This document shows positions 3-45,957 of a stretch of DNA of 60,509 nucleotides, in pieces (position 1 is the first letter of the stretch; each line of letters opens with the position of its first letter). The DNA comes from Acidimicrobiia bacterium. Its GTDB lineage: Bacteria; Actinomycetota; Acidimicrobiia; Spongiisociales; ZC4RG35. The stretch is taken from the NCBI GenBank assembly GCA_041744795.1, contig JBGTKD010000199.1, positions 1-60,509 on the forward strand, in the 5' to 3' direction. A program made the translations under genes and the position numbers. The notes below the pieces were generated by a model that had not been told where the DNA came from, ran no database searches, and saw only the letters and a program-made list of their open reading frames with translations.

Positions 3-851
3 ATGGCTGAAAGCCGTATCGAAACGTGGCGGCTCCCCGACGGTTGGCGCCCTGAGCCGATCTTCGCGCTCGGCGCGATCAGTCAATACGTCGGGGCGGC
101 CATTGCCGTCATCTTGTTTGCGACGATCCCGGCGCCCACAGTCGCTTTTCTTCGGGTGTTGGGTGCCGGTGTGATCCTCGTTCTGGTTCGACGCTCGTGG
201 CAGCGCCAGTGGGATCGGGAGGCCCTGATCCGGGCCGGGCTCTTCGGTTCGTTCCTCGCGGCGATGAATCTGAGCATCTACCTGGCCATAGAGCGGCTTC
301 CGCTCGGCAATGCAGCCGCCATCGAGTTCCTCGGCCCGGTGGCGGTGGCTGCGCTCAGTGCCCGTAGCCCGCGAAGGCGGAGTGCCTTGGTGCTTGCCCT
401 GGCAGGGGTGATTCTCATCGCGGGGGTGTCGCCAGAAGGAACGCTCCCCGGCGTCGCCTTTGCCCTTCTGGCCGCTGGGTTTTGGGCGGGATACATCGTG
501 TTTGGTGCTCGTGTCGCTCATTCAGGATCAGGCGTGGACGGCCTGGGGGTGGGCATGCTGATTGGCGCCTTGGTCATCGCCCCGGTAGCCGCGGGCGGCC
601 TCGGTGCGGCTATCGCATTCCCCTTACTGGGTGCGGCCGCCATCGCCACCGGTCTCCTGTCCAACGCCATTCCCTATGCCATCGACCAGGTTGTCCTTGT
701 CCGAATCGACCGGGGACGATTCGCCGTGCTCCAGTCGCTGCTGCCGGTCGTTGCCACCCTTGTGGGGCTACTCGCGCTCGGTCAGTTCCCGAGTCTGGGG
801 GAGGCGATCGGTATCGCCGCCGTGACCGTGGCGATCGCCCTCTCCCGATGA
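3..851 (+). CDS. EamA/DMT-family membrane transporter (RhtA-like)
   Basis: 282-aa ORF from ATG at 3. About 10 hydrophobic helices in two EamA-like halves (e.g. AMNLSIYLAIERLPLGNAAAIEFLGP). Codon usage is typical of this GC-rich window. Confidence 0.8.
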   Translation: MAESRIETWRLPDGWRPEPIFALGAISQYVGAAIAVILFATIPAPTVAFLRVLGAGVILVLVRRSWQRQWDREALIRAGLFGSFLAAMNLSIYLAIERLPLGNAAAIEFLGPVAVAALSARSPRRRSALVLALAGVILIAGVSPEGTLPGVAFALLAAGFWAGYIVFGARVAHSGSGVDGLGVGMLIGALVIAPVAAGGLGAAIAFPLLGAAAIATGLLSNAIPYAIDQVVLVRIDRGRFAVLQSLLPVVATLVGLLALGQFPSLGEAIGIAAVTVAIALSR

Positions 852-872
852 GGCGGTGGTTCTGCGACCGCC
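852..872. terminator. Hairpin between convergent genes (possible bidirectional terminator)
   Basis: GGCGGT (852-857) and ACCGCC (867-872) form a 6-bp stem with a 9-nt loop. It lies directly after the EamA stop and before the stop of the convergent DUF126 gene. There is no U-tract. Confidence 0.3.
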
Positions 873-890
873 TCCTGCATCGAATCGAGA

Positions 891-1310
891 TCAGTCGAGA
901 CCCGTGGCGTGTAGGCCGGCAGCGTCGATGGTGGCGCGCTGCCCAGTTGCCAGTCGGGCGGCGTCGGCAGGGTCGATCCGCACGAATGGACACCGACGCT
1001 TGTACAGCAGGTTGCCCACGATCGCCCCGAGCACAAGGATGTGGTCGAATTCCGTCAGAACGACAGCGGCAGGTGCGATCGAGAGCCGGATCAGCTCGGC
1101 AAACACACTCGAACTGGACGACGAGCCGCGCCCGATGGCCATCACAACGACCTTCCCCGTGACCACCTGGCCTTGCTGGGGGTGGTGGACGTCGATAATC
1201 ACGCCGGACTCCCGGTCGACTCCCCCCCAGAACGACAGCGGCTCGTCGAGGACCAGCACTTCGCCGGCCGCATCGCCTTCGAAGAGAACCGAAGCTGGGA
1301 TATCGATCAC
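891..1310 (-). CDS. Aconitase X swivel-domain protein (DUF126, AcnX small subunit)
   Basis: Carries the DUF126 hallmark ...LDEPLSFWGGVDRESGVIIDVHHPQQGQVVTGKVVVMAIGRGSSSSS.... I set the start at GTG 1310, which overlaps the upstream stop as GTGA. The track ORF start at 1427 would lie inside the upstream gene. Confidence 0.8.
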   Translation of the reverse strand: MIDIPASVLFEGDAAGEVLVLDEPLSFWGGVDRESGVIIDVHHPQQGQVVTGKVVVMAIGRGSSSSSSVFAELIRLSIAPAAVVLTEFDHILVLGAIVGNLLYKRRCPFVRIDPADAARLATGQRATIDAAGLHATGLD

Positions 1311-2569
1311 GATATCCAGCCAGATTCGCCATGGACCGCCCTTCCGGCGACTGCCGACTCGATGCAATCCTCGAGCGAGCCGAAGACGACATCGACGCCG
1401 AGATTGCCAGGGGCGTAATACGCCCACTTGGCCGAGTTCGTCATGACGGCTCCGTTCAGTTTGCGGAGAATGGGTGTCACATAGGTGCAGGTGTCTACGA
1501 CGATGTCGACGCCTGCCTCCTCGAGTCTTTGGACCAGACCTTCCGAACGCGCTGTTGCGTACGTTTCCCGACCGGTGGAGACGTAGAAGTCGATGCGAGC
1601 GTCGATCGCGCGGTCGCCGAGGATCTGCACGGTGCGACGCATCTCGGAGATTGAGAAGTGAGGGGTGCCGATGCTCACCCCGACGAGGGGCGCTTCGCTG
1701 CGAGTCGTCAGGCCTCGGAGGGCCTCTATCGCCATCTGTCGAGTGAAGTGAAGCTCTGGGAGTTTCGTCGACCCTCCGAGGGCCGCAACGCGATCGGGAG
1801 CCTCAGGGGTGAGGCCCACCGCATGAAACATGGCCATCGTGCCGGTGGTCGCCCCGGCGGCTCCCAACGCCTTCAGGTGGTCTTCGGTTGTGTCGTCAGG
1901 CAGGCCCACGATGGCGGAAATGCCGTCCATCAGCTTGCCGATCAGCAGCCCCACGGCTGGGTAAAGCACCTCTGATCGATCCGCGGCGAAGAGTTCGGTG
2001 ACGTCTACGACATTGTCGGCGTACCGGTTCTCGGCCCGATGGAGTCCGGCGTCCGGTACCCGCCCGACGATGGCGGCCGCAATGTCGAAGAAATCGCCAT
2101 AGCGTTCAGTGCGGGCGCCCAGCACCGAGTTGGCGAAGACGATGGCGTTCGACTCAGCCCACGCCACATGCTCTCCGAGGCCGGGTCTCACCGGCAGGTG
2201 GTACGGCGCGCACGTCCAGGTCGGAGTGCAACCCATCTCGACGTAGGCATCCATCATCCGTCGTGCCTCAGCCCGGACGGTGTCATCTCCCCGATACAAC
2301 TCGGGATGAAGGAGATCCAACGACGACACATTGAGAGTGGAAGGGACCGACACGCGCCCTCCTCGGTCACGAAGGAACTCGGCGAACTCGACACCTGCGA
2401 GCCCGTGATGCAGGCAGGCGTCGATGTGGGCGGAGGTCACATCGATGAGCCGGGTGGCACCCACCATCTCGCCGTAGGCCACGACGATCTCCATGGCGTG
2501 CCTGGACGCCTCGCCCAATTCCCCCCGTTGTGCGGCCCGATCACGGGCGTCGAGACGGAGTTCGCTCAT
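1307..2569 (-). CDS. Aconitase X catalytic-domain protein (DUF521, AcnX large subunit)
   Basis: 420-aa ORF with a DUF521-like N-terminus (...EIVVAYGEMVGATRLIDVTSAHIDACL...). It is translationally coupled to the DUF126 gene by a 4-nt overlap. Confidence 0.85.
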   Translation of the reverse strand: MSELRLDARDRAAQRGELGEASRHAMEIVVAYGEMVGATRLIDVTSAHIDACLHHGLAGVEFAEFLRDRGGRVSVPSTLNVSSLDLLHPELYRGDDTVRAEARRMMDAYVEMGCTPTWTCAPYHLPVRPGLGEHVAWAESNAIVFANSVLGARTERYGDFFDIAAAIVGRVPDAGLHRAENRYADNVVDVTELFAADRSEVLYPAVGLLIGKLMDGISAIVGLPDDTTEDHLKALGAAGATTGTMAMFHAVGLTPEAPDRVAALGGSTKLPELHFTRQMAIEALRGLTTRSEAPLVGVSIGTPHFSISEMRRTVQILGDRAIDARIDFYVSTGRETYATARSEGLVQRLEEAGVDIVVDTCTYVTPILRKLNGAVMTNSAKWAYYAPGNLGVDVVFGSLEDCIESAVAGRAVHGESGWIS

Positions 2570-2826
2570 TCGTCGGCCGGCGTCGGTGTGTGACCCCAGA
2601 GACGTGTGGCCCCGACTTCTGCGGCGATCAGCGCCGCACCCTCTTCACATTTCATAATCCATTGTCCTATAGGTTGGGCGCCGTGCGCTGCAATCGGTTC
2701 GGCCCCTGGTGTCCGAGATCCGGATGTGCCGGGTGGGTCTGAGGAACGTCGGCCGCCGTCGTTCTGGCGGGAGAGTGAGCCCGTCTGTACCCTGACCTCG
2801 CCCCAGGTGATGCCTGGGGCTCTTTG

Positions 2827-2918
<92 letters not shown>

Positions 2919-2968: not shown

Positions 2969-4294
2969 TCAGGCCTCGACGCGTTCGAGGTTGAGGCCGA
3001 GAGATTGGAAGGTTTCGAGAGGCTTGTTGTAGCCGCGCTCGAGGTGGTTGACTCCGCCGATGCGGGAGGCGCCCTCGGCGACCGCAGCGGCGATCACGCC
3101 TGAGAATCCTGCCCTGACGTCGGGGATTTCGACATTTGCGCCGCGCAGTTTCGATACGCCCCGCACCACCGCAGAGTGCACCGAGTTGGTGTCGTGGAAG
3201 CGACAGGCCGGTCCCCCGAGACAGGTGTCGAATAGCTCGACCTCTCCGCCCATCGCCCGAACGACGGAAGCCGGATACCGGACTCGATCTTCGAAGACGG
3301 TCTCGTGGAGCACCGACATTCCGTCGGCCTGGGTCATCAGGACCAGCAGAGGTGACTGCCAGTCCGTCATGAACCCTGGATGGGTGTCGGTGTGGACCGC
3401 AACCGGGTTAAGGCCGCTCGACGAGGCTGTGATCCAGTCGTCATTGACGTCCAGCACGGCTCCCATCCGGCTGAGAGTTGTGATTGCTGTCACCAGACGG
3501 TCCTGGCTGCATCCCGCCACCCGCACGTTGCCGCCGGTGATCAGACCCGCCACCAGATACGAGAAGGCCTCCAATCGGTCCCCTTGCAGGCGAGTGTGTG
3601 CACCTCGCAGGGTGGGGACCCCTTCGATTACGAATTGGCGGCCCGGCCGTTGCTCCAGCCGGGCGCCCATCCGTTGTAAGAACAGGGCCAACTCGACGAT
3701 CTCCGGTTCGGTGGCGGCATTGGACAGCACTGTCCGTCCCTCGGCTACGGCCGCCGCCAGTAACACCGTCTCGGTTGCCATGACCGACGGATAGGGCAGT
3801 TCGATCTGAGCGCCCTTCAAACCGTGAGATCGAGCATGGATCCCTTCGTCGCTCTCCTCGATTTCCGCCCCCATCGCGCGTAGGGCGCTGACGTGGAAGT
3901 CCACCGGTCGACGACCGATCCGGTCCCCGCCTGGCAGAGGAACGAAGACTTCGTGGCGGAGATGGAGCAGCGGTCCGAGCATGAGAATGGGAATACGGTT
4001 CAGTCCCGTGTACTCGACCGACACCTCTGAGCCGATCTCGTCTGCAGGATGAATCTCGATGCGGTCGTCGGTCCGTTCAACGCCTACTCCAAGTGACCGC
4101 AGGATTGCTTCAGTGATGTGGACGTCGCCGACGTCGGGGATGTTCTCGATCACCGACGGAGTCGACCCCATCACCGCAGCCACCATGTGCTTTGTGACGG
4201 CGTTCTTTGACCCCGCCACTTTCACCTCACCGCGCAACGGACCGGACGGCTCGACCAGCCAGGCGGGGGAGTGTTCGTCGTTGCTCACGATCAC
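2969..4294 (-). CDS. murA: UDP-N-acetylglucosamine 1-carboxyvinyltransferase
   Basis: 441-aa EPSP-synthase-fold protein with the N-terminal motif GEVKVAGSKNA. The active-site loop reads PLPGGDRIGRRPVDFH, which matches E. coli PGGC(115)xIGARPVDLH except that Asp replaces the Cys. Confidence 0.9.
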   Translation of the reverse strand: MIVSNDEHSPAWLVEPSGPLRGEVKVAGSKNAVTKHMVAAVMGSTPSVIENIPDVGDVHITEAILRSLGVGVERTDDRIEIHPADEIGSEVSVEYTGLNRIPILMLGPLLHLRHEVFVPLPGGDRIGRRPVDFHVSALRAMGAEIEESDEGIHARSHGLKGAQIELPYPSVMATETVLLAAAVAEGRTVLSNAATEPEIVELALFLQRMGARLEQRPGRQFVIEGVPTLRGAHTRLQGDRLEAFSYLVAGLITGGNVRVAGCSQDRLVTAITTLSRMGAVLDVNDDWITASSSGLNPVAVHTDTHPGFMTDWQSPLLVLMTQADGMSVLHETVFEDRVRYPASVVRAMGGEVELFDTCLGGPACRFHDTNSVHSAVVRGVSKLRGANVEIPDVRAGFSGVIAAAVAEGASRIGGVNHLERGYNKPLETFQSLGLNLERVEA

Positions 4295-6682: not shown

Positions 6683-6789
6683 TCACCGACATGTTCGAGA
6701 TCGGTAGGAGCCCCAGCCTGGTCTAAACTGGTGTGGTTCGCGTGATGTGAAGTCGCCGATATCGCCTCGCTAGCGTGGACTCCACACAT

Positions 6790-6863
6790 GCGCCCGTAGC
6801 TCAATTGGATAGAGCGTCTGATTACGGATCAGGAGGTTAGGGGTTCAAGTCCCTTCGGGCGTG
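6790..6863 (+). tRNA. tRNA-Arg (anticodon ACG)
   Basis: Starts GCGCCCG-TA-GCTC-AATTGGATA-GAGC. Anticodon stem TCTGA/TCAGG encloses the loop TTACGGA. T-arm is AGGGG-TTCAAGT-CCCTT. The 3' acceptor strand is CGGGCGT, giving a G1-U72 wobble, and the discriminator is G. Confidence 0.9.
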
Positions 6864-6870
6864 CTGAGCG

Positions 6871-6894
6871 AAACCCCCGTTCCGACGGGGGTTT
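6871..6894 (+). terminator. Perfect 10-bp hairpin after tRNA-Arg (terminator-like)
   Basis: AAACCCCCGT - TCCG - ACGGGGGTTT, starting 8 nt after the tRNA 3' end. The stem ends in TTT. Confidence 0.5.
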
Positions 6895-7155
6895 CGGCGC
6901 GTCTGGTTGTCCAATAACCCAGAGGGTTGGCCGGCCGGCGGGGGGTGACGTTGGGTTTGGGCCTCGGCAGCAGCGTCCGCTCAAGGAACCTTGGCGACGC
7001 GCTGAATGAGGTGTGTCTCCTCATAAGGCACCAGCTGAGGAAGAAGGTCCCAGGTTTCGCGCATTCGCCCGGTCAGGCGACGAAGCCCCTTGACACGTCA
7101 GGCTTCAGGGTGTGTGCACGATGCCGATGTAGACACATGATCTTTCACGAGTCGC

Positions 7156-9099
7156 TTGAACTTCATGCGAGCGAGGCGGCGATTTTGGATGGCAACTACG
7201 ACGTCTGTCTCGTCCACTACCGCTCGGGTAAGCACCGCAACGGTGACCGACGAGCGCGGGGCTGTCGTTGGGGTGGTGGGAGTCTCGATGGAGGTCACCG
7301 CCACCAGGCAGGCCGAAGCTGAGATGAAAAGCCGTCAGCAGCTGATCGCGGCCGCGTTCGAGTCTTCGCCGATCGGTACATCCATCGCGTCCCCTGATCT
7401 GACGATCGTGTCGGCCAATCCTGCTTACGCGGCCTTTCTCGGTTATCCAGTGGGCGACCTGATCGGCAGGAACGTCCGGGAGTTCACGCATCCTGAAGAC
7501 CTCGACGCCACCAAAGACGCCCTCAGTGGATTGGTCGGCGGTGGAGCGACCAGCAACGTAATCGACAAGCGATACATACGTTCTGACGGCCAGATCGTGT
7601 GGGGTCGTCTCCATGTCAGCTGGATCTATGACGAGGACGGCCGGGTCACCCATGCGCTAGGACAAGTCGTCGACATCACCGAGGTCAAGCATTCCGAAGA
7701 CCAGATCCGCTTCCAGGCTTCGGTGCTTGACCAGGTTCATCACGCGGTGTCGGCAACCGACATGACCGGAGCCATCACATACTGGAACAAGAGAGCCGAG
7801 ACTTTGTTCGGTTGGACTGAATCCGAAGTAATCGGCCGCAGCCTCAAGGGAATCGTGCTCACCGAGACAGCATCAGAGTTCCTGGCAACCCTCTACGCCG
7901 CGCTGGCCGAACATGGGATGTGGGAGGGCGAAGTGACGCTCGCGCGAAAGGATGGCTCAACCTTCCCCGCCTGGGCGAGCGACACCGTCATCCGTGACGC
8001 CCAAGGCAAGCCGGTCGGTTTCGTGGCTGTGAACATCGACATGACCGACATCAAAACGGCGGAACAGCTCGCCCGAAATCAAGCGGACCTCAACCGGACC
8101 CTGCTCGAGTCGGTCAGCGTGCCCATCGCCATCATCGATAAAGACGGGGATCTGATCGTCACGAATCCCTCGTGGGAGCGGATCACTCATGCCAAGCCGA
8201 GCCGCGCTGGATACCTTCCGGCATGCCTCGCCGAGCACGCCTCACCAGGGGAGTTGATGGATGGCATCGCAGGCGTGATCGACGGCACGACCGATCGGTT
8301 TGTCATCGAGTACCCCTGTTATGAAGCAGGTGACGAAAGCTGGTTTCGGACCGTTGTGGTTGGGGCTGAGAGCGGGGCGGTGATCTCGCACTGGGACATC
8401 ACCGACGAACGGATCGCCAGAGCGACGCTCGAAGACAGGATCCGGGCAAATGACGCCTTCATAGCATCGGTCTCCCACGAGCTGCGGACTCCGCTCACTG
8501 CAGTGCTGGGCCTCTCAGAGATGCTCCGGTCGGGAACCGTCCCGATTGAGGATGCTGGAGAAATGATCTCTCTGATCGCAGACCAGGCCCAAGAGGTCTC
8601 GTTGATCGTTGAGGACCTGCTGGTCTCAGGCCGCCTTGAAAGCAACACTCTGACTGTACATCCCAGCACTTTCGACGTGGCAGATGAGACGATCAAAGTG
8701 ATCCAGCCGGGGATCCACACAGGAAACACTGACATCGAGGTGGCGTTCACGACGGGGGCGGTGTTCGCGTTCGCCGATCCGCTCAGGGTCCGCCAGATTC
8801 TTCGCAACCTCATCACCAACGCGCATCGACATGGCCGCCCGCCGGTCACGATCACCGGGTCCATGAGCGGAGGCCGATGTGTCGTGAAGGTCACGGATCG
8901 CGGACATGGCATCCCGAGAGATGCCGAGGTGAGATTGTTCGACCCATACGCCCGATTTGGGCCGACTGGCGGCCAACCCCTATCGGTTGGTCTGGGACTC
9001 CATGTAGCGCGTCGCCTGGCACGTTTGATGGATGGCGAGCTCACCTACCAGAGACAAGACCTCGAAACCATCTTCGAGCTGACCCTCCCAGGACCGTAA
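7156..9099 (+). CDS. Multi-PAS sensor histidine kinase (cytoplasmic, N-terminally truncated first PAS)
   Basis: 647-aa ORF with three complete PAS modules, HisKA (FIASVSHELRTPLTAVLG) and HATPase_c (NLITNAHRHG ... DRGHGIP ... GLGLHVA). Possible starts are TTG 7156, ATG 7165 or ATG 7186. It is a paralogue of the kinase at 23973..26495. Confidence 0.85.
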   Translation: MNFMRARRRFWMATTTSVSSTTARVSTATVTDERGAVVGVVGVSMEVTATRQAEAEMKSRQQLIAAAFESSPIGTSIASPDLTIVSANPAYAAFLGYPVGDLIGRNVREFTHPEDLDATKDALSGLVGGGATSNVIDKRYIRSDGQIVWGRLHVSWIYDEDGRVTHALGQVVDITEVKHSEDQIRFQASVLDQVHHAVSATDMTGAITYWNKRAETLFGWTESEVIGRSLKGIVLTETASEFLATLYAALAEHGMWEGEVTLARKDGSTFPAWASDTVIRDAQGKPVGFVAVNIDMTDIKTAEQLARNQADLNRTLLESVSVPIAIIDKDGDLIVTNPSWERITHAKPSRAGYLPACLAEHASPGELMDGIAGVIDGTTDRFVIEYPCYEAGDESWFRTVVVGAESGAVISHWDITDERIARATLEDRIRANDAFIASVSHELRTPLTAVLGLSEMLRSGTVPIEDAGEMISLIADQAQEVSLIVEDLLVSGRLESNTLTVHPSTFDVADETIKVIQPGIHTGNTDIEVAFTTGAVFAFADPLRVRQILRNLITNAHRHGRPPVTITGSMSGGRCVVKVTDRGHGIPRDAEVRLFDPYARFGPTGGQPLSVGLGLHVARRLARLMDGELTYQRQDLETIFELTLPGP

Positions 9100-9158
9100 G
9101 CCGTCACCAATCTCCACGATTGACACATGCCGAACCTGACGCGGTCGATGACTATCGC

Positions 9159-9653
9159 TCAGAACATCAGATTGTGCCGCTCGACCAGGGGCATCGTGGC
9201 CTCAAAGTCGACGGCACACCCATAGCTGGCTGCCATCTCCGCCAGGGTCTCCGGTTCGGGGAAGTCAGTGAGTGAGTCAAGAGCCCGGAAGAGGTCGTCC
9301 AATCCTGCGGGCGAGATCAACTCGAGTATTCGGGCTGTGGTGTCGCCAGCATTCCAGAAGGTGTGCCACTCCCCGCGTGGCTTGAACAGAAGATCTCCGG
9401 GCCTGGCAACGGCCTCGTGACCGCCGAGAATCGCGCCTACCTCGCCTTCGATTATGAAAGAGAACTCGTCTTCTCGACTGTGGTGGTGCATTGGAGCGGC
9501 GAGGGCTCGGGGAGGAAGGACGTGCTCGACCACGGCGAACCGCCCCTCAGTGTCCCCGGCGGACACAAGGAACCGATCCTGAGGCCCGCCCGGGGACCCC
9601 ATCAGCTCTCCTTCCGAAGCCCTTATCAATCGGGGTTGGCGTGACGTGGTCAT
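9159..9653 (-). CDS. Cupin-domain protein
   Basis: Cupin motifs PMHHHSREDEFSFIIEGEV and PRGEWHTFWN. I set the start at ATG 9653, preceded by AAGGAGA. This ATG overlaps the upstream stop as ATGA. Confidence 0.75.
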   Translation of the reverse strand: MTTSRQPRLIRASEGELMGSPGGPQDRFLVSAGDTEGRFAVVEHVLPPRALAAPMHHHSREDEFSFIIEGEVGAILGGHEAVARPGDLLFKPRGEWHTFWNAGDTTARILELISPAGLDDLFRALDSLTDFPEPETLAEMAASYGCAVDFEATMPLVERHNLMF

Positions 9654-9985
9654 ATTTCTCCTTGGTGAGTGGGTGGCCATTTCAAGACGGAGATCGCGAT
9701 TCGCCATGATCCGTCCGGCCCGCGGCGAGAGAGGTTGACACCCTGTCCGACGCTGATCGCCAGGTCGTTGGTGGCCAGGATCCGTGTTGAAGCCGGACGA
9801 ACCGCCTCTTGATTCGGCGAGAATGTCCGGGCCGTGAAGGCAGCAGGCGATTCGGGATGCTCCTGATCGCTTACGAGGATCCCGTTGGGCTCGAAAAGCG
9901 AGATGACTCGCTCAGCATCTGAGAGGATGAAGGCATCCTCGAGGAGGGCCTCCAGCTCTTCCGGTGTGCGTGCTCCGTCACTCAA
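9650..9985 (-). CDS. Small NTF2/SnoaL-like fold protein (hypothetical)
   Basis: This is the C-terminal 111 aa of track ORF 9650..10216. TTG at 9985 is preceded by GGAGGA (9997-9992) with 6-nt spacing. The longer version would run across the divergent LuxR start. The fold assignment rests only on size and pattern (TPEELEALLEDAFILSD...WRIAISVL). Confidence 0.5.
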   Translation of the reverse strand: MSDGARTPEELEALLEDAFILSDAERVISLFEPNGILVSDQEHPESPAAFTARTFSPNQEAVRPASTRILATNDLAISVGQGVNLSRRGPDGSWRIAISVLKWPPTHQGEI

Positions 9986-10090
9986 CAAACTTCCTCCGCC
10001 CCGACGACTATCGGATCTCCAAAGTAGATCTCGGGGTGGGGGCGCGTCGATACCAGCTTTCTGGCAGTTTCCTGGGGCTGAGCGCTCCTT

Positions 10091-11236
10091 ATGATCTTCT
10101 TCGTGCAGAGTCGAGAGCGTGTCATCACTCGTGTCCGCGAGCTGAGCAACAGAGGCCTCGACCTCGTTGGGTTCTGGAGCGAATGCACCGAAGTGATCAC
10201 ACCCGTGATGCCCCACTATCTCGGACCTTGTTGGTTCACGGTCGACCCGGCGTCACTGATGATCACCAGTCACTATCAGGAGGGGTTACCCGAGATTCCA
10301 TCCGAATGGCTGGCCGAGGAGTACTACGGCGATGATTTCAACAAGATGGTGGATGTCGCCCGATCCGAAAGCGGGGTGGGCACTCTTCTCGAGGCGACGG
10401 GCGGTGACCCCACACTTAGTGCCCGCTATCACGAGCAGATGGTGCCGTTCGGCTGCGACCAAGAGATGCTCGTAGGGCTCCGCACCACAAGAGACGAGAT
10501 TTGGGGCTGTCTTGGCTTGTACAGGGAAATGGGTCAGCCCCAGTTCGGGCCCGATGACTTTTCCTTCGTCCGAGAGCTCTCACCTCATCTGGCAGAAGGC
10601 GCCCGGCGCGCTCTCCTGTTCGCCGAGGCCACCGACCCGGATGACCCAGAACCTCCCGGGCTGGTGGTCATCGATGACAATTGGGAGGTCGAGTCGGTGA
10701 CGCCTGCCGCCGCCAGGTGGCTTGCCGACTTCCCTGACGGGGATTGGGGCAGGGGAATCCTCCCGTCGGCCGTCAGTTCGGTAGCGGGGCAAGCTCGTCG
10801 GACCGCCGAGCGCGATGATCCCGGCCAGGTCGCCTACGCACGTGTGCTCTCTCGGAGTGGTCGCTGGATCGTCTTGCACGGAGCCTCTTTGGTGTCGGGC
10901 GATCGCCCGCGGGTCGCCGTGATCATTGAGCTGGCCCATCCGGCGCGGATAGCTCCGCTTCTGATGGCGGCGTACGGGCTCAGCGAGCGGGAACAGGATG
11001 TGACCAGACTTGTCTTGCAGGGTTGTTCGACCACCGAAATCGCCGATCGGCTCTATATCTCGGTCAACACGGTCCAACAGCACCTAAAAAGCATCTTCGA
11101 AAAGACTTCGGTCAGGAGTAGGCGCGATCTGGTGGGCAAGGTCTTCTTTGCCCATTACGAACCTCGGGTCCGTGACAACGAAGGACGGGCTGTAGCCGGG
11201 GATCCGCTGCGGGGTGGCCCTTCACCCATGGCTTAG
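10091..11236 (+). CDS. LuxR-family transcriptional regulator with N-terminal GAF-like sensor domain
   Basis: C-terminal LuxR HTH (LSEREQDVTRLVLQGCSTTEIADRLYISVNTVQQHLKSIFEKTSVRSRRDLV). No receiver domain is present. It is divergent from the NTF2-like/cupin pair. Confidence 0.85.
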   Translation: MIFFVQSRERVITRVRELSNRGLDLVGFWSECTEVITPVMPHYLGPCWFTVDPASLMITSHYQEGLPEIPSEWLAEEYYGDDFNKMVDVARSESGVGTLLEATGGDPTLSARYHEQMVPFGCDQEMLVGLRTTRDEIWGCLGLYREMGQPQFGPDDFSFVRELSPHLAEGARRALLFAEATDPDDPEPPGLVVIDDNWEVESVTPAAARWLADFPDGDWGRGILPSAVSSVAGQARRTAERDDPGQVAYARVLSRSGRWIVLHGASLVSGDRPRVAVIIELAHPARIAPLLMAAYGLSEREQDVTRLVLQGCSTTEIADRLYISVNTVQQHLKSIFEKTSVRSRRDLVGKVFFAHYEPRVRDNEGRAVAGDPLRGGPSPMA

Positions 11237-39330: not shown

Positions 39331-40005
39331 GTGGCGTACCCTCGGCGGATGGAACTTCTTGAAGCGCTCTACACGACACGGGCCATGCGACGAACAACGA
39401 CCGATCCGATACCGGACGAGGTGTTGGCGGGCATGCTCGATGCGGCTGTCCGCGCACCGTCGGGAGGCAACTCTCAGAACTGGCGGTTCGTGGCTGTTAC
39501 CGACCAGACCACCAAGGATCTTCTTGGTCCGGTGTACCGCGACGCCTGGAACGAGCTCAACTCCGCCGTCTACGCAGGAGTCCGCGAGCAGGCCGCTGAC
39601 AAAGGCGATAACCAGTCGCTCCGCATGCTCAAATCGAGTGACTGGCTGGCAGACAACTTCGAGGCTGTGCCGATGTGGTTGATGGTCTTTTCGCGCAACG
39701 ATCCGAGCGGGGCGTCGATCTATCCGGCCGTGTGGAACGCAATGCTGGCAGCGCGTGGTCACGGTGTCGGGACATGCCTGACGACGATTCTCGGCGTGTT
39801 TCAGCAGCCCGCCACGTTCAAGATCCTGGGAGTCCCGGACGACAAGGGCTGGATCATGAATGCAGCTGTTTCCGTTGGATACCCCACCGGCCGATGGGGA
39901 CTGGCCAAACGAAAGCCTGCCCATGAAGTGGCGTACGCCGAGCGTTGGGGTGAGCCGCTCGGCTTCACCATCGATCAGTCCCTCTGGCAGGAACCGTCCG
40001 ACTGA
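39331..40005 (+). CDS. Nitroreductase-family protein
   Basis: N-terminal EALYTTRAMRR... and ...APSGGNSQNWRF.... The start is GTG 39331 or the in-frame ATG 39349. Confidence 0.85.
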   Translation: MAYPRRMELLEALYTTRAMRRTTTDPIPDEVLAGMLDAAVRAPSGGNSQNWRFVAVTDQTTKDLLGPVYRDAWNELNSAVYAGVREQAADKGDNQSLRMLKSSDWLADNFEAVPMWLMVFSRNDPSGASIYPAVWNAMLAARGHGVGTCLTTILGVFQQPATFKILGVPDDKGWIMNAAVSVGYPTGRWGLAKRKPAHEVAYAERWGEPLGFTIDQSLWQEPSD

Positions 40006-40035
40006 CACGAGCGCGGCCAGGCGACGACTGGTGAG

Positions 40036-40566
40036 TCAACCGAGAACGGCTAGGACCTCGTCCAGGTCTGCGTGATCTCCCGCGAAGTCCTCGAAATCAG
40101 CGTATAGAAGCTCGTCGCCTGGACCAATCACCAGCGTGGCACCAAGTTGGAAGGGTCTCCTGCCCGAATTGTGCTGGCGGTGGCCTCCCAGGGTCGACCG
40201 GATGCCGGAGACGAGCTGTTTGGGGGACACCAGACTCAGCCCCCGCATCTTCTTAGTGCCGGCAACCTCGGCAGCTGATCCGTCCTGATCCAGAAGCACG
40301 GGAAACGGCACCTGCTCATCCTCGATGAAGGCTTTGGCGTAGCGCTTCCCCCCGGTTCCGATCGCAGTTACTCCCACGCCCTTCGCCACGAACTCGGCGT
40401 ACCTCTCGCGGACCTGACCGGCCCGCTCTCGACAAGTCAGTCAGCCGAAATGGCGTAGAAACAAGATGACGTGGGGACTCTCTGCCCAAAGGTCACCGAG
40501 CGTGACCTCATTCTCATCCGGATCGATGACAACCGTCTTGCCCAGTTTCGCCACATCGAAGGTCAT
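40036..40566 (-). CDS. Peroxiredoxin-like (AhpC-TSA_2) thiol oxidoreductase with in-frame TGA at the CxxC position (candidate selenoprotein, otherwise nonsense pseudogene)
   Basis: From ATG 40566 the frame reads ...PHVILFLRHFG-TGA(40443..40441)-LTCRERAGQ.... It continues in the same frame into track ORF 40036..40389. The family hallmark is FLRxFGCxxCR. Confidence 0.6.
40408..40426 (-). promoter_or_regulatory. SECIS-like stem-loop downstream of the in-frame UGA
   Basis: mRNA G-CGGGCC [GGUCA] GGUCCG-C: 7 bp including one G-U pair. The stem starts 15 nt after the UGA, which places the apical loop about 21 nt downstream. Confidence 0.4.
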
Positions 40567-40582
40567 GCGCGGAGCGTAGTAG

Positions 40583-41584
40583 CTAGAACAACGTTGGCCG
40601 GAAGAGGCGGTCGTGGGTGCTCAGGGCGAAACGGTCAGTCATTCCTGACACGTAGTCGATTGCCCGTGTGAGGTCGTCGGTGTCGTCGACCCTGTATGAC
40701 TCGGGAATCTCATCCGGGTGCTCGACGTAGTAGTCCGTGAGGTTGCGGATGACGACGATGGCCCGTTGCTTCTGTGCTTCAGCCTCGGGGCTTAGATAGA
40801 CGTTGGAGAACATGAAGTCTCGTAGCTCGTTCATCACGTCGAGGGTCGGCTGGTCCATCGTGACCACTCCCGCTTCTGAGGAAGTCAGAACCACCGCGTC
40901 GATCATTGATCCGATCCACTGGCGAGAGCTGTCGCCGAACCGGCGAACGGCACGATCAGGCAGGTCGACAAACGAGATGACGCCGGCACGAAGGGCATCG
41001 GCTACGTCGTGGGTCAGGTACGCGATGCGGTCAGCGAAACGGCACAGGTCCCCCTCTGGGGTGCTCGGAGGCGGATCGATCTTCCAAGAGTGCGCCCGCA
41101 CCCCGTCGAGAACTTCCCAGGTCAGGTTTAGCGGCTCGAGGACCGACAGCACTCTGACCCCTTGAGCCGAGTGCAGCCACTCGCCTTCGACATAGGGGGT
41201 CAGCGCGTCCTCTCCGGTGTGACCGAAAGGGGAATGTCCGACGTCATGGGCCAGGCAGATCGCCTCCGTTAGCGCCTCGTTGAGACCCAACGCCACCGCC
41301 ATCGCTCTTCCGACCTGGGTGACATGGACGGTGTGTGTGAGCCGGGTCACGTAGTGGTCGCCCTCAGGGTTCAAAAAGACCTGGGTCTTGTGCTTCAACC
41401 TTCGAAAAGCCTTCGAGTGGATGATCCGGTCGCGGTCGCGCTCAAACACGGTTCGGTACTCGTCGTGTGGCTCATCCACGCCACGTCCCCGCGACTGGTT
41501 GGACTTGGTCGCCAACGGAGAGAGGTCCCGATGCTCGCGCTCTTCTCGTTCTGCTCGAAGAACCCGGTGCAGGTTCGCGCTCAT
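40583..41584 (-). CDS. dGTP triphosphohydrolase-like HD-domain protein
   Basis: 333 aa with the HD motif HDVGHSPFGHTGE and a dgt-family N-terminus (…YRTVFERDRDRIIHSKAFRRLKHKTQVF…). ATG 41584 overlaps the phnE stop as ATGA. Confidence 0.85.
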   Translation of the reverse strand: MSANLHRVLRAEREEREHRDLSPLATKSNQSRGRGVDEPHDEYRTVFERDRDRIIHSKAFRRLKHKTQVFLNPEGDHYVTRLTHTVHVTQVGRAMAVALGLNEALTEAICLAHDVGHSPFGHTGEDALTPYVEGEWLHSAQGVRVLSVLEPLNLTWEVLDGVRAHSWKIDPPPSTPEGDLCRFADRIAYLTHDVADALRAGVISFVDLPDRAVRRFGDSSRQWIGSMIDAVVLTSSEAGVVTMDQPTLDVMNELRDFMFSNVYLSPEAEAQKQRAIVVIRNLTDYYVEHPDEIPESYRVDDTDDLTRAIDYVSGMTDRFALSTHDRLFRPTLF

Positions 41585-42543
41585 CCGAGGGGGTTAAGCG
41601 CCACTTCGAGCTGGTACAGCACGAAGACGAAGAGTGCCACGGCGGCCAGCAGGCCGATGATGATCAGGCCCCGTTCCCAAGTCTTCATCCGGAGGAAGGC
41701 CGCGATTGGACCTGTCTCGGGTCGTCCGCTGATGATCCGCCTACGCAAGCGTCCCGAGGTCATGTCGACTAGCAACACCACTGCCACGGTGATGAAGAGG
41801 ACGGTTCCTGCTCGGGAGAAGTCACGGAAACGCAACTGTGAGACGAGTTCGGCACCGATGCCTCCTGCGCCGACGATACCCAGCACCGCAGATGCGCGGA
41901 TGTTGACCTCGAACCGGTAGAGCCAATAGGCGACGATGTTCGGCATGACCTGGGGAACGATGGCGAATCGCATCCGCTGGATCCAGGTTCCGCCTGCGGA
42001 CGCGACGGCCTGAACAGGTCCGGGGTCGATGCCTTCGATGACTTCCGAGGACAGCTTTCCGAGGGTGCCGATGGAGTGGATGCCAATAGCGAGTGTGCCG
42101 GTCCATGGTCCGAGGCCGGTCACGGGGATTAGAACCATGGCCACGAGGAGTTCCGGGACGGCGCGTATGGCGTTCAGCACCTGGCGCACACTGTTCGACA
42201 TCCATGCTGGAGTGACGTTCTTGGCGGCGAGGAACGCCAGCGGAAAAGAGAAGAAGGCGCCTATCAGCGTGCCGATCCACGCGATGTACAAGGACTCCAT
42301 CATCTTCGGCACGGCGCGCTGGAGCGCTTCGGCGCTCATGTCCGGAGGGATCAACTGGCTGATGATCGTCCAGATGTCGTTTGGAGCGTTGAGCACTCGT
42401 TCGACCGACAGGTTCAATCCCATTGCTGACCAAATCGCAGGGACCACGATGGCGACTGCGACCGCCCACCGGAACAGTTGAGGTCCAAGTGGCCGGGCGG
42501 GCCGAGGGGTTTTCTCTACGTTTCGATTCGCCACGGTCGTCAT
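41581..42543 (-). CDS. phnE: Phosphonate ABC transporter permease
   Basis: 320 aa with a PhnE-type permease core (…AVASAGGTWIQRMRFAIVPQVMPNIVAYWLYRFEVNIRASAVLGIVGAGGIG…). It overlaps both neighbouring genes by 4 nt. Confidence 0.85.
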   Translation of the reverse strand: MTTVANRNVEKTPRPARPLGPQLFRWAVAVAIVVPAIWSAMGLNLSVERVLNAPNDIWTIISQLIPPDMSAEALQRAVPKMMESLYIAWIGTLIGAFFSFPLAFLAAKNVTPAWMSNSVRQVLNAIRAVPELLVAMVLIPVTGLGPWTGTLAIGIHSIGTLGKLSSEVIEGIDPGPVQAVASAGGTWIQRMRFAIVPQVMPNIVAYWLYRFEVNIRASAVLGIVGAGGIGAELVSQLRFRDFSRAGTVLFITVAVVLLVDMTSGRLRRRIISGRPETGPIAAFLRMKTWERGLIIIGLLAAVALFVFVLYQLEVALNPLG

Positions 42544-43907
42544 ACGAGCCTCCGTCGCAGCGCGACGCTGACCTGTTCGATCGCGAACACGATCACGAAG
42601 ATGAGGATCACGATTGCCAGCACCCGGTCGAACTGGAAGAACGACCTTTGTGCTTCCAGCACGCGGCCTATTCCACCGGCTCCGGCGAGACCGATGACGA
42701 CAGAGGCTCGGATGTTGATCTCAAAGATGTACAGGGCGTATGCCACGTAATTGGGCAGCACCTGGGGGAGGACCGCCGATCGCACTGCAGGGAAATGCGC
42801 TGCTCCCGTCGATCGGGCAGCTTCGAGCGGTCCGACATCGACGGCGTCGATCGTCTCTGAGAACAGCTTGCCCATGATGCCGAGTGAGAAGAACACAAGA
42901 GCCAGGGCACCGGCGAGAGGTCCGACGCCTAGTGCGGCCACGAAGAGCAGTGCCCAGAAGAGGTCCGGAACCGTGCGGATCAGGCTCATGATCCCCTTGT
43001 CGATCAGGTACACGACGTTGCTCGGCGCGGTGATCTTGGAGGCCATAAAGGCCACGGGTAGGGCGAACCCGCACCCGATCACGCTGGCCACGATCGAGAT
43101 TCGGAAGGTTTCGATGAGGGGATTGGCACGGGTCGAAGAACCGAACTCCCACGTCGGTGGCCACCACCAGGTTCCTTCACCGACCGCCCAGGCGAAGTCC
43201 GGCGGCCAGAAGTTGGGGACGTTGACGATGTTGCGGAAATCTCTGATCAGGTTGGTGAGGCTGAATCCCACCTCCGCACCTGCGAAAAAGCTTCCAAAGA
43301 TCACTGCGGCGACGACCCCGAGAACGGGGATCTTTCCGACCGCGCCGAGGGTGGAGGCCAGACCTATGAGGCCGACGGCCAGACTCACAACCACGAAAAC
43401 ACCCACGCCAAATTCGGGTTCGGCCCCTCTGGACAGGCTGCTGAGCGGCGTGAAGACGTCGAAGCTGTTGGCTGCTGGCAGGGCGATGACACCCGCGCCG
43501 ATCCACGCCAGTGCCCCGTTGATGGCTGCAAAAGGCCGTGCGCCCCGCGCTCGCAGAATCCAGCCAACAGCTAGCCCGGTGACAGCCCATGCCCCGCCTA
43601 CCGAAAGGGCCAGCAGTACGCCAAGTGTCTCAGGAACGTCCGAGACGATGGCGGCTGTGAGAAGACAGGAGGCCAGCACCGCCGTGCCTAGAACGGCCTC
43701 TTCGAGCGACGAGAGTTCCAGCTTGGCGATGCGGAAGCTCAAAAGGACTCCGCCAGCCGCCAGGACACCCCAGATGATTCCGGATGCGGTTAGTGCGGTC
43801 ATCCCTCCCGCAACGAGCAAAACCAAACCGGCGAGGAGACCGGGAAGGAGGGTGTAAGCCCTGAGAGGTGGGACAGGGCGCGTTGGCGCCTCCGCCACCT
43901 GAGTCAC
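42540..43907 (-). CDS. phnE: Phosphonate ABC transporter permease with extra N-terminal TM domain
   Basis: 455 aa. The C-terminal half is PhnE-like (…AARSTGAAHFPAVRSAVLPQVLPNYVAYALYIFEINIRASVVIGLAGAGGIG…). The N-terminal 190 aa or so add further TM helices. Confidence 0.8.
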   Translation of the reverse strand: MTQVAEAPTRPVPPLRAYTLLPGLLAGLVLLVAGGMTALTASGIIWGVLAAGGVLLSFRIAKLELSSLEEAVLGTAVLASCLLTAAIVSDVPETLGVLLALSVGGAWAVTGLAVGWILRARGARPFAAINGALAWIGAGVIALPAANSFDVFTPLSSLSRGAEPEFGVGVFVVVSLAVGLIGLASTLGAVGKIPVLGVVAAVIFGSFFAGAEVGFSLTNLIRDFRNIVNVPNFWPPDFAWAVGEGTWWWPPTWEFGSSTRANPLIETFRISIVASVIGCGFALPVAFMASKITAPSNVVYLIDKGIMSLIRTVPDLFWALLFVAALGVGPLAGALALVFFSLGIMGKLFSETIDAVDVGPLEAARSTGAAHFPAVRSAVLPQVLPNYVAYALYIFEINIRASVVIGLAGAGGIGRVLEAQRSFFQFDRVLAIVILIFVIVFAIEQVSVALRRRLV

Positions 43908-44677
43908 AGCTCGGCGCCTTCGAGTAGATCGTCGGGCGTGACGGCTCGGCCGTAGATATCTCGGAAGGTGTCTTCTCCGACATCGGCGATCTGGCCGTCG
44001 TAGACGAGTTCGCCGTCGCGCAGACCGATCAGGCGCTGTCCGTAGCTGCGGGCCAGGTCCAGGAAGTGGAGATTGATGATTGTCGTGATCTTCAGCTCGC
44101 GGTTGATCCGCCGGAGGTCGCGCATGACTGTGTGTGAGGTGACAGGGTCGAGCGAGGCGACCGGCTCGTCTGCCAGGACGACAGTTGGTTCCTGGGCCAG
44201 TGCCCTGGCGATTCCGACCCGCTGCTGCTGGCCGCCCGAAAGGTCCGAGGCTCGCACGTAGGCCTTTTCAACGATCTCGACCCGCTCCAGCGCCTGCAAT
44301 GCGATCTCTCGCTCACTGGCTGGCCAGAGGGCGAGAAGGGAGCGCCAGCGCGGCACTTTGGATATTCGTCCCATGAGCACGTTGTTAATGACCGATGTTC
44401 GATTGACCAGGTTGAAGGTCTGAAAGATCATCCCGATGTGGGAGCGGAGCTCCCTCAGGGTCTTGGCGTCTGCCCCGCGAACCTCGACGCCGTCGACCTT
44501 GACCGATCCGGCAGTGATTGGAACGAAGCCGTTGATAGCTCGAAGAAGAGTCGACTTTCCCGCTCCAGAGAGTCCGACAATGACGACCAGCTCGCCGGTC
44601 TCAATCGTCAAGGAGACGTTCTTCAGGGCCTTCAGACCGCCCGGATAGGTGACGTCGACATTCTCGAACTCGATCAT
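43904..44677 (-). CDS. phnC: Phosphonate ABC transporter ATP-binding protein
   Basis: Walker A GLSGAGKST, signature LSGGQQQR and Walker B VVLADEP. PhnC-like N-terminus MIEFENVDVTYPGG. Confidence 0.9.
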   Translation of the reverse strand: MIEFENVDVTYPGGLKALKNVSLTIETGELVVIVGLSGAGKSTLLRAINGFVPITAGSVKVDGVEVRGADAKTLRELRSHIGMIFQTFNLVNRTSVINNVLMGRISKVPRWRSLLALWPASEREIALQALERVEIVEKAYVRASDLSGGQQQRVGIARALAQEPTVVLADEPVASLDPVTSHTVMRDLRRINRELKITTIINLHFLDLARSYGQRLIGLRDGELVYDGQIADVGEDTFRDIYGRAVTPDDLLEGAEL

Positions 44678-44750
44678 TTCTCTCCTCTGACGAGATTCAG
44701 GGGCCGCCGTGTCCGGCGGCCCCTGAAAGACCGGGTGTTACCCCGAAGCG

Positions 44751-45860
44751 TCACCCGCTGTAGCCGAGTTCCGCGATTGCTTCTTCGATGGCCCGCAGCG
44801 ACTGGTGCGTGGTCTCATCTGCACGGATCAGATCCGTCCACGAGTACAGGGCGTCCATCACTTCGGCACCTTCTTCGGTGGCGATGAAATCGGCCATCGC
44901 CTGGAAGAGGGCCTCCTTCAGGCTCTCGGGTAGGTCCCCCCTTATGGCGATCACATCGTTGGCGATACGCGAGGTCACGTTGAACACGATGACCTTTTCA
45001 CCGACGTCGGGCTTTTCCTCGCGGATTGCGCGGCGTGCGTCGTCGAACGACACGCCGATGTCGGCGCTTCCGTCGTAGACCGCCGTGACTGCGCCGTCGT
45101 GGCCGCCGGCGAAGATCGAGGTGTACTGGTCATCCGTGATGCCTGCGCGGATCAGTTCGAGCGTGGGGAAGATGAAACCGGAGGTCGACGTCTCCGTCGT
45201 CCAGGCGATCGACTTGTCAATCACGACCTCGAGATCCACAGGCTCAGGACAAATCAGACCTGCAGAGGTCGCATCGTCGCGGGTCCCGTCGGGGTTCCAA
45301 CCCACCTGCAGAGCCGGCGTGTCGCTCGGTCCTACTGCGATGACGGTGCCGTCGGCCTCGTACCAATAGGCGCCTTCGATTGGGTCAGCACCACAGATGC
45401 TCGGGTCGTTCGTGAACCACTGGCCGTGATAGGTCGAGTCGCCGAAACGTACCGACTGGGCGAGCAACTCGAGGTTGCCGTATTGCTGGTTGGCAAGCAC
45501 GTACCCGGCCGGTCCGAACGCACCGAGGTCGGCCTGTCCGGTTCCGAGCGCCACACCGAGACCGGTGTAGTCGGTGGTGACGATGCCCTCAACATTGATG
45601 CCGAGAGCCTCGGAGAGCACCCTGGCAAACGTGTCGACATCGTCCTGGAGCTCTGCGACTTCCTGGCTCGGGACGAAGCCAAAGATGAGGGTGTCCGGCC
45701 AGTCGGCCCGGGGGTCAGCTTCTGTAGTCGTCGTTTCTTCGGCTGCCGTGGTAGTGGTCTCCGCGGCGGTAGTGGTCGTCGTGTCATCAGCGGTGTCTCC
45801 ACCGCAGGCTGCCACGACCATCGCAAGTACTGCGAGCAGGGCTAGCAAGCGCTTGGTCAT
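44751..45860 (-). CDS. phnD: Phosphonate/phosphite ABC transporter substrate-binding lipoprotein
   Basis: ATG 45860, preceded by AAGGAAG. Lipobox VAAC and a Thr-rich linker. PhnD-like core (…LIFGFVPSQE…GQADLGAFGPAGYV…). Confidence 0.85.
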   Translation of the reverse strand: MTKRLLALLAVLAMVVAACGGDTADDTTTTTAAETTTTAAEETTTTEADPRADWPDTLIFGFVPSQEVAELQDDVDTFARVLSEALGINVEGIVTTDYTGLGVALGTGQADLGAFGPAGYVLANQQYGNLELLAQSVRFGDSTYHGQWFTNDPSICGADPIEGAYWYEADGTVIAVGPSDTPALQVGWNPDGTRDDATSAGLICPEPVDLEVVIDKSIAWTTETSTSGFIFPTLELIRAGITDDQYTSIFAGGHDGAVTAVYDGSADIGVSFDDARRAIREEKPDVGEKVIVFNVTSRIANDVIAIRGDLPESLKEALFQAMADFIATEEGAEVMDALYSWTDLIRADETTHQSLRAIEEAIAELGYSG

Positions 45861-45957
45861 TGGTTTCTTCCTTTGCTTTGGGAAAGCGGGGTGACGCGCA
45901 CTCATCAAGGGCATCTACCCCACGCCACGTCAGGGTAAGGGAAACGGGTGTCGGTAC

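Follow-up and report, generated by a model that had tools for sequence, protein, structure and literature searches.

The question raised by the 60.5-kb stretch of Acidimicrobiia DNA analysed here (the window) is how a TGA triplet within a small peroxiredoxin-like gene on its minus strand should be read: as the end of a gene, as the mark of a dead one, or as a codon for selenocysteine (Sec). I will argue that the last of these is very probably correct, and that the frame, the conserved TGA, a constrained hairpin, the protein fold and the Sec machinery of orthologous genomes together point to SelB/SECIS-dependent insertion of Sec at codon 42 and hence to a redox protein of the U-x-x-C type. Read from its ATG, the minus strand gives the peptide MTFDV...HVILFLRHFG, then TGA at 40443..40441 and then LTCRERAGQVRERY... 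without a frame shift (LTCRERAGQVR...), running to the stop at 40038..40036, and this one frame of 176 codons holds that single in-frame TGA. A mechanical ORF list breaks it in two, 40441..40566 (41 aa) and 40036..40389 (117 aa), which an earlier note on this DNA had joined through the TGA; its coordinates and sequence proved to be exactly as claimed. The features discussed are collected in Table 1.

Table 1. Coordinates of the peroxiredoxin-like gene, its parts and other features of the window.
Feature	Position	Strand	Remarks
Complete gene, ATG 40566 to terminal TGA 40038..40036	40036..40566	-	176 codons including predicted Sec42
N-terminal 41 codons, MTFDV...FLRHFG	40444..40566	-	Called apart as a 41-aa ORF
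In-frame UGA, predicted Sec residue 42	40441..40443	-	Aligns with the N-terminal catalytic Cys of CxxC
TGT codon, Cys45, probable resolving Cys of UxxC	40432..40434	-	Read from the sequence
SECIS-like hairpin within the coding sequence	40408..40426	-	Frozen third positions, compensatory pairs, RNAalifold, fdhF geometry
HD + HD_assoc phosphohydrolase, upstream neighbour	40583..41584	-	16 nt from the Prx-like start codon; context only
Six-gene same-strand cluster: Phosphonate-bd, ABC_tran, two BPD_transp_1, HD+HD_assoc, Prx-like	40036..45914	-	
tRNA-Ser (GCT), 92 nt	2827..2918	+	Long variable arm; not tRNA-Sec
tRNA-Arg (ACG)	6790..6864	+	

The kind of protein encoded across the TGA can be recognized from its family and its fold. 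When rebuilt with Cys at the TGA position for Pfam scoring, the protein passes the cut-offs of AhpC-TSA (PF00578, 50.2 bits), AhpC-TSA_2 (PF13911, 46.3 bits against a gathering cut-off of 27, the level that defines PRX-like2) and Redoxin (45.4 bits). The closest solved structure by sequence (phmmer) is human prostamide/prostaglandin F synthase PRXL2B (9us9), which aligns end to end (query 2-176 to chain 3-181, E = 8.5e-8) at an identity of only about 22%; in this alignment LRRFGCVVCR of PRXL2B lies over LRHFG-U-LTCR and the TGA falls on Cys44, so that the proposal of a stop positioned precisely at the N-terminal redox Cys, giving U-L-T-C, is borne out. The AlphaFold model of a full-length Cys orthologue (pTM 0.76; pLDDT >85 outside the 105-137 loop) has a thioredoxin fold in which residue 42 follows strand 32-37 and stands at the N-terminal end of helix 43-54, and Foldseek, too, ranks 9us9 first (TM 0.87, rmsd 2.0 A), with BCP/PrxQ and ResA next. 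A PRX-like2 protein is expected to have a thioredoxin fold, a CxxC-type motif where helix 1 begins and a full-length match to a family member, and all three are present. The canonical peroxiredoxin motif PxxxT/SxxC is absent, with V-I-L-F-L-R-H-F-G ahead of U42, His at -3 and Leu at -7, and the protein is therefore better described as a CxxC-type thiol oxidoreductase than as a typical Prx, its kinship to AhpC/Prx/BCP holding at the domain level only, since it scores on PF00578 but lacks the motif.

Two further comparisons place the protein more closely. The best NCBIfam model, NF040769 ('SelL-related redox protein'), aligns with the whole protein (residues 12-174) and gives 85.9 bits against a curated cut-off of 120, leaving it outside that family as NCBI defines it, and because of this score PGAP names the pieces 'peroxiredoxin-like family protein' and does not rescue the gene. 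The likeness to SELENOU/PRXL2 (PRXL2A, PRXL2B and PRXL2C), seen in the full-length alignment and the best structural match, is also a likeness in habit: these proteins constitute the SELENOU family, with Sec forms in fish and birds, and the family switches between Sec and Cys at the motif position (PMC13134290). Eukaryotic SELENOU relies on a SECIS in the 3' UTR together with SBP2 and eEFSec, whereas the element in the window gene lies within the coding sequence, as in bacteria; nor is the prostaglandin chemistry of PRXL2B expected in a bacterium.

If the TGA encodes an amino acid, it should persist among relatives and the sequence on both sides of it should evolve as protein. A scan with one genome per species yielded 68 loci, mostly from Acidimicrobiia metagenome-assembled genomes (MAGs), whose DNA was read at the TGA column, and here the alignment of orthologues that the earlier note had called for came out strongly on the side of recoding: TGA stands in 51/51 distinct Acidimicrobiia orthologues (the window counted; column FLRHFG-TGA-LTCRE), which are 60-78% identical to the window protein in amino acids, and also in 10 distant homologues, namely two from Actinomycetota (49% identity) and others from Desulfobacterota and elsewhere (29-36%); counted over homologous loci, TGA is present in 62/63. 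Cys occupies the column only in L056 (TGT), L002/P0001 (TGT) and P0087/L076 (TGC), one of the TGT carriers being a Methylomirabilota homologue. The N-terminal segment ahead of the TGA measures 41 codons in most orthologues, and Cys45 is invariant as Cys in all 51, by way of both TGT and TGC. At codon positions 1/2/3, pairs of sequences differ by 0.27/0.19/0.58 in the upstream 30 codons (50 orthologues) and by 0.20/0.14/0.59 downstream of the TGA, and no orthologue has a further stop in those 30 upstream codons; both flanks thus evolve as coding sequence, and the additional lesions that would accompany a plain nonsense mutation were looked for in vain. An in-frame UGA over the Cys of homologues at the redox site, with conservation at the protein level on either side, is what one looks for in a selenoprotein. 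Furthermore, the genetic code is not reassigned, a possibility ruled out because TGA serves as the ordinary stop of 31/39 likely genes in the window, the Prx-like gene among them.

The same column explains how these genes appear in public data. It had been anticipated that automatic annotation would cut the gene short, and so it does: among the best 120 protein homologues in a large collection, 118 are called at 108-144 aa and cover only the stretch past the TGA, and just two are full length, with the motifs CVTC and CLLC. In a clustering of the whole family at 50%, full-length Cys forms at 27-45% identity make up most of the relatives, the smaller share being cut short near position 43-67, from which it follows that Sec marks particular branches, the Acidimicrobiia clade being almost entirely Sec.

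A bacterial Sec codon also needs a signal in the mRNA, and the hairpin predicted past the UGA, with a GGUC-containing loop about 21 nt away, is indeed there. On the minus strand its 5' arm is GCGGGCC (40426..40420), its loop GGUCA (40419..40415) and its 3' arm GGUCCGC (40414..40408), making a 7-bp stem that begins 14 nt past the UGA and a loop that begins 21 nt past it, and the isolated 19-nt element folds at -13.0 kcal/mol. In this GC-rich stretch the fold of a single 62-nt sequence is no better than chance against dinucleotide shuffles (z = -0.14), and the case for the hairpin therefore stands on comparative data. Rfam gave no SECIS match, either in a scan of the whole window at the gathering threshold or in a permissive scan of 40300..40520, where the sole match was Ms_IGR-2, attributable to chance (E = 5); bacterial SECIS elements are poorly covered by Rfam.

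The comparative data show that the element is constrained as RNA. Codons +7 to +9 (GCC GGT CAG) are identical in 51/51 orthologues, including two fourfold-degenerate third positions, so that synonymous-site entropy across the loop codons is zero, compared with 3-4 synonymous codons and 1.2-2.4 bits of entropy at other invariant Gly, Ala and Arg codons of the same alignment; similarly, codons +6 to +11 diverge by 0.14 at the third position and the flanks by 0.54-0.59. RNAalifold, applied to the ungapped alignment A2, arrives independently at the 7-bp stem with its 5-nt loop, 96.6% of the stem cells in A2 are paired, a share that drops to 12-43% if the 3' partner is shifted by 1-3 columns, and the observed covariation score was reached by 0/500 column shuffles. 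Of the seven stem pairs, five are invariant and so reflect the freezing of the sequence while remaining silent on structure, which means that direct covariation rests on the other two: pair 24-36, which is GC in 46 orthologues, AU in 3 (CGA...GTT, changed on both sides) and A-C in 2, and the basal pair 21-39, which is GC in 33, AU in 5, GU in 3 and broken in 10/51. An extended lower stem, pairing the Cys-Arg codons with Arg-Tyr codons, was also considered and is not kept across the orthologues of A2. RNAalifold draws, in addition, a 3-bp mini-helix (GGY with RCC) around the UGA of all orthologues (window 40431..40446, minus strand; A2 columns 1-16), whose pairs vary only between G-C and G-U and provide no evidence either way on structure.

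Beyond the close orthologues, the hairpin keeps company with the TGA rather than with a particular sequence. In distant TGA forms the same place, starting 10-18 nt past the UGA, is taken by hairpins that differ in sequence (for example GGCAGCA-GGC-UGCUGCC, GCGAGC-AGGUC-GCUCGC and GUCGCGC-AGUU-GCGCGAU), and in the sub-branch at 49% identity a clean 7-bp hairpin is seen in the TGA forms L055 and L064 and is missing from the Cys form L076. Together with the conserved stem-loop, the frozen synonymous sites and the compensatory G-C to A-U change, this speaks for the co-occurrence of hairpin and TGA on which the selenoprotein proposal had been made to depend, and a stem-loop just past the UGA with G in its apical loop is what is expected of a SECIS. 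One locus departs from the pattern: L002 (2..544, JGI 3300045962) has TGT, a Cys codon, at the Sec column, yet retains an identical CGGGCCGGTCAGGTCCG hairpin core, and it is nested among TGA forms, the nearest being L034 at 78% identity. The simplest reading is a recent change from Sec to Cys that left a fossil SECIS behind, or else the TGT is a sequence variant or an error; retention of the hairpin would also be expected if its purpose were unrelated to Sec.

The geometry recalls the best-known example from Escherichia coli. In fdhF the UGA is codon 140, the 17-nt SelB-binding hairpin begins at +11 and the GGUC loop at +18, so the GGUC apical loop named in the earlier note holds on the E. coli sequence. 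Both hairpins lie within the ORF, just 3' of the UGA, with GGUC in the apical loop, and the window gene, where stem and loop begin at +14 and +21, differs by exactly one codon further downstream. It differs as well in having a 5-nt GGUCA loop on a perfect, GC-rich 7-bp stem with one G-U pair and, in the predicted fold, in having no bulged U.

Now considering the machinery that such an element would need, the window itself covers 60.5 kb of its own genome and contains no tRNA-Sec (ARAGORN), its only tRNA genes being the tRNA-Ser and tRNA-Arg of Table 1, and no SelA, SelB or SelD (tblastn with the E. coli proteins); 60 kb is too little for these absences to be informative. The evidence on sel genes consists of selA and selB in orthologous genomes. 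In L050, a 554-kb MAG contig, selA (6785-8131; TIGR00474, 416.5 bits against a cut-off of 267.9) and selB (8119-9882; TIGR00475, 342.9 bits against 242.25) pass the NCBI equivalog cut-offs and lie on the same strand, ending 59 nt before the ATG of a TGA-bearing orthologue. A second contig, ERZ21269717 contig_17801 (658,674 bp), located through a homology search with the SelA of L050, carries selA and selB at 2.7-20 kb, the latter with SelB-specific Pfam domains, and, at 654-658 kb, an orthologue that has both the TGA and the same hairpin. Many SelA matches are labelled Acidimicrobiia, and a 2026 preprint on the order Actinomarinales reports that each of its 84 complete genomes has selA, selB, selC and selD. 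No tRNA-Sec gene (selC) was detected in the 51 loci by ARAGORN or in L050, L074 and L075 by Rfam, and no selD in any retrieved locus by tblastn with E. coli SelD. As an observation on L050 in its own right, selA, selB and the Prx-like gene occupy 6785..10459 on one strand with a GGAGG ribosome-binding site inside the 59-nt gap, and they may form an operon that joins the Sec machinery to a client gene.

Each of the other ways of reading the locus has something to recommend it and meets the same body of evidence. A single base change does turn a Cys codon into TGA, and gene callers do truncate the result, which is the attraction of regarding the gene as inactivated by a nonsense mutation from TGC or TGT; I give this almost no credence, since the identical TGA recurs in separate species-level genomes and in the distant homologues, purifying selection acts on both flanks without further lesions (the absence of any extra upstream stop being reason enough not to call it a pseudogene), and synonymous sites preserve an RNA hairpin. 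Just as little credit is due to the view that matches the gene-caller annotation, namely two genes, one for a 41-aa peptide and the other for a protein of 117-134 aa, translationally coupled at TGA-CTG: the codon right after the TGA differs among homologues (CTG, CTC, CTT, ATC, ATG, GTG), which leaves no conserved restart codon, in PRXL2B and the full-length Cys homologues one chain spans both parts, and a gene boundary at the TGA would cut strand beta-1 and the catalytic residue off from the remainder of the thioredoxin fold.

A UGA that is passed without selenium deserves a longer look, even if it too is highly improbable. Here a near-cognate or suppressor tRNA would insert Trp, Cys or Arg with the hairpin as a generic stimulator, or regulated termination would give both the 41-aa peptide and the full-length protein, and in favor of such schemes one can cite the Cys form L002, which retains the hairpin, and the fact that the Sec machinery is known from orthologous genomes and not from the window's own. 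Against them, recoding falls precisely on the catalytic Cys of CxxC, the classic Sec/Cys pair, where Trp or Arg would inactivate the enzyme; the loop and its spacing match the SelB-dependent element of fdhF; and selA and selB lie adjacent to orthologues or on the same contig. Insertion of Sec through SelB and a SECIS therefore remains the reading I prefer. According to it, 40036..40566 would be one intact gene for a 175-residue PRX-like2/AhpC-TSA_2 thiol oxidoreductase with the motif Sec42-Leu-Thr-Cys45, in which the UGA at 40443..40441 would be recoded as Sec during translation, and the 19-nt stem-loop at 40426..40408, 14 nt past the UGA, would serve as the bacterial SECIS, presumably by binding SelB-GTP-Sec-tRNA(Sec) and so delivering it to the ribosome as the UGA enters the A site. 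In the finished protein, redox cycling would then go through a selenenylsulfide (Sec42-Cys45) at the N-terminal end of helix 1.

How new would such a protein be? Prx-like bacterial selenoproteins of the UxxC type have been predicted since 2004-2008, and the claim that UxxC forms of thioredoxin-fold and Prx-like proteins are an established bacterial class holds in the sense of a long-established predicted class, to which the window gene belongs. The catalogues list a 'Prx-like thiol:disulfide oxidoreductase' with UxxC/UxxU (pfam00578) and a 'Peroxiredoxin-like family protein, cd02970, UxxS' (PMC2398784, PMC9312934, PMC13188914), with WP_010940744.1 and MDX2448127.1 as representatives. The likeness is considerable, comprising a thioredoxin fold, Sec as the first residue of an xxC redox motif, the existence of Cys homologues and a SECIS just past the UGA, and those families likewise rest on comparative-genomics prediction and are routinely mis-annotated. 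Compared with them, by description only, the Acidimicrobiia clade scores on PF13911/PRX-like2 and has ULTC, not UxxS, and Acidimicrobiia go unmentioned in the prokaryotic selenoproteome catalogues and reviews consulted. It is tempting, at a little less than an even bet, to regard the clade as a distinct and uncatalogued bacterial branch of SELENOU/PRXL2, with Sec nearly fixed throughout the class and a SECIS of unusually invariant sequence with an E. coli-type GGUC loop, sometimes placed right after selA-selB on the same strand and possibly in an operon with them; if this is true, PGAP/NCBIfam models systematically truncate the clade, and its presence could flag uncultured Acidimicrobiia that use Sec. 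A separate observation concerns L057, L058, L060, L062 and L063, from Desulfobacterota and related MAGs, which are TGA forms with U-M-F-A or U-I-F-A in which the resolving Cys is missing and whose SECIS-like hairpin is the GGCAGCA-GGC-UGCUGCC given above; these may be members of the cd02970 family that the catalogues list as UxxS.

The understanding of Sec decoding and of Prx-like selenoproteins is unchanged by the window gene, and its main value lies in the repair of annotation: at least 118 public protein clusters are truncated at the N-terminus and lack the catalytic residue, among them NCBI entries of 134-135 aa named 'peroxiredoxin-like family protein', and a curated selenoprotein model for the Acidimicrobiia clade would repair these entries. 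In addition, the gene provides independent support, beside the 2026 Actinomarinales preprint, for widespread Sec decoding in uncultured Acidimicrobiia of soil and sediment, and it offers an example of an in-ORF SECIS in which the constraint on the RNA can be read directly from synonymous sites.

The surroundings of the gene are of some interest in themselves. The Prx-like gene is the last of the six-gene cluster, in which stops and starts overlap or nearly abut and four genes specify a phosphonate-type ABC transporter; it is probably co-transcribed with the HD phosphohydrolase gene ahead of it, and a nitroreductase gene converges on it from downstream. The gene order of the window recurs in L001 and is lacking in L050, where selA-selB lie upstream, and in L074, where a luciferase-like monooxygenase does, and because these orders differ the neighborhood yields no firm clue to function. 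The whole window was also searched for other in-frame TGA codons flanked by open, high-GC3 sequence and followed by a hairpin; the 35 candidates that came up were noisy, and the Prx-like target was not among them. Near selAB in L075 (ERZ21269717 contig_17801), an aldehyde dehydrogenase is called as adjacent fragments of 166 and 186 aa and a ParA/Mrp-like gene as adjacent fragments of 246 and 106 aa (fragment pairs at 826..1867 on the minus strand and 3020..4077 on the plus strand), and these split calls could be frameshifts, assembly errors or recoding; a HesB/IscA gene at 2353..2874, which looks like a further split, encodes an ordinary Cys protein, the ORF upstream of it being spurious. Lastly, the same TGA is found in L073, a separate assembly from another read set (Logan SRR28170463) that is 99.75% identical to the window over 39684..42079, with 6 mismatches in 2,396 nt, and the run SRR28170463, holding as it does so close a strain, offers a route to the remainder of the source genome.
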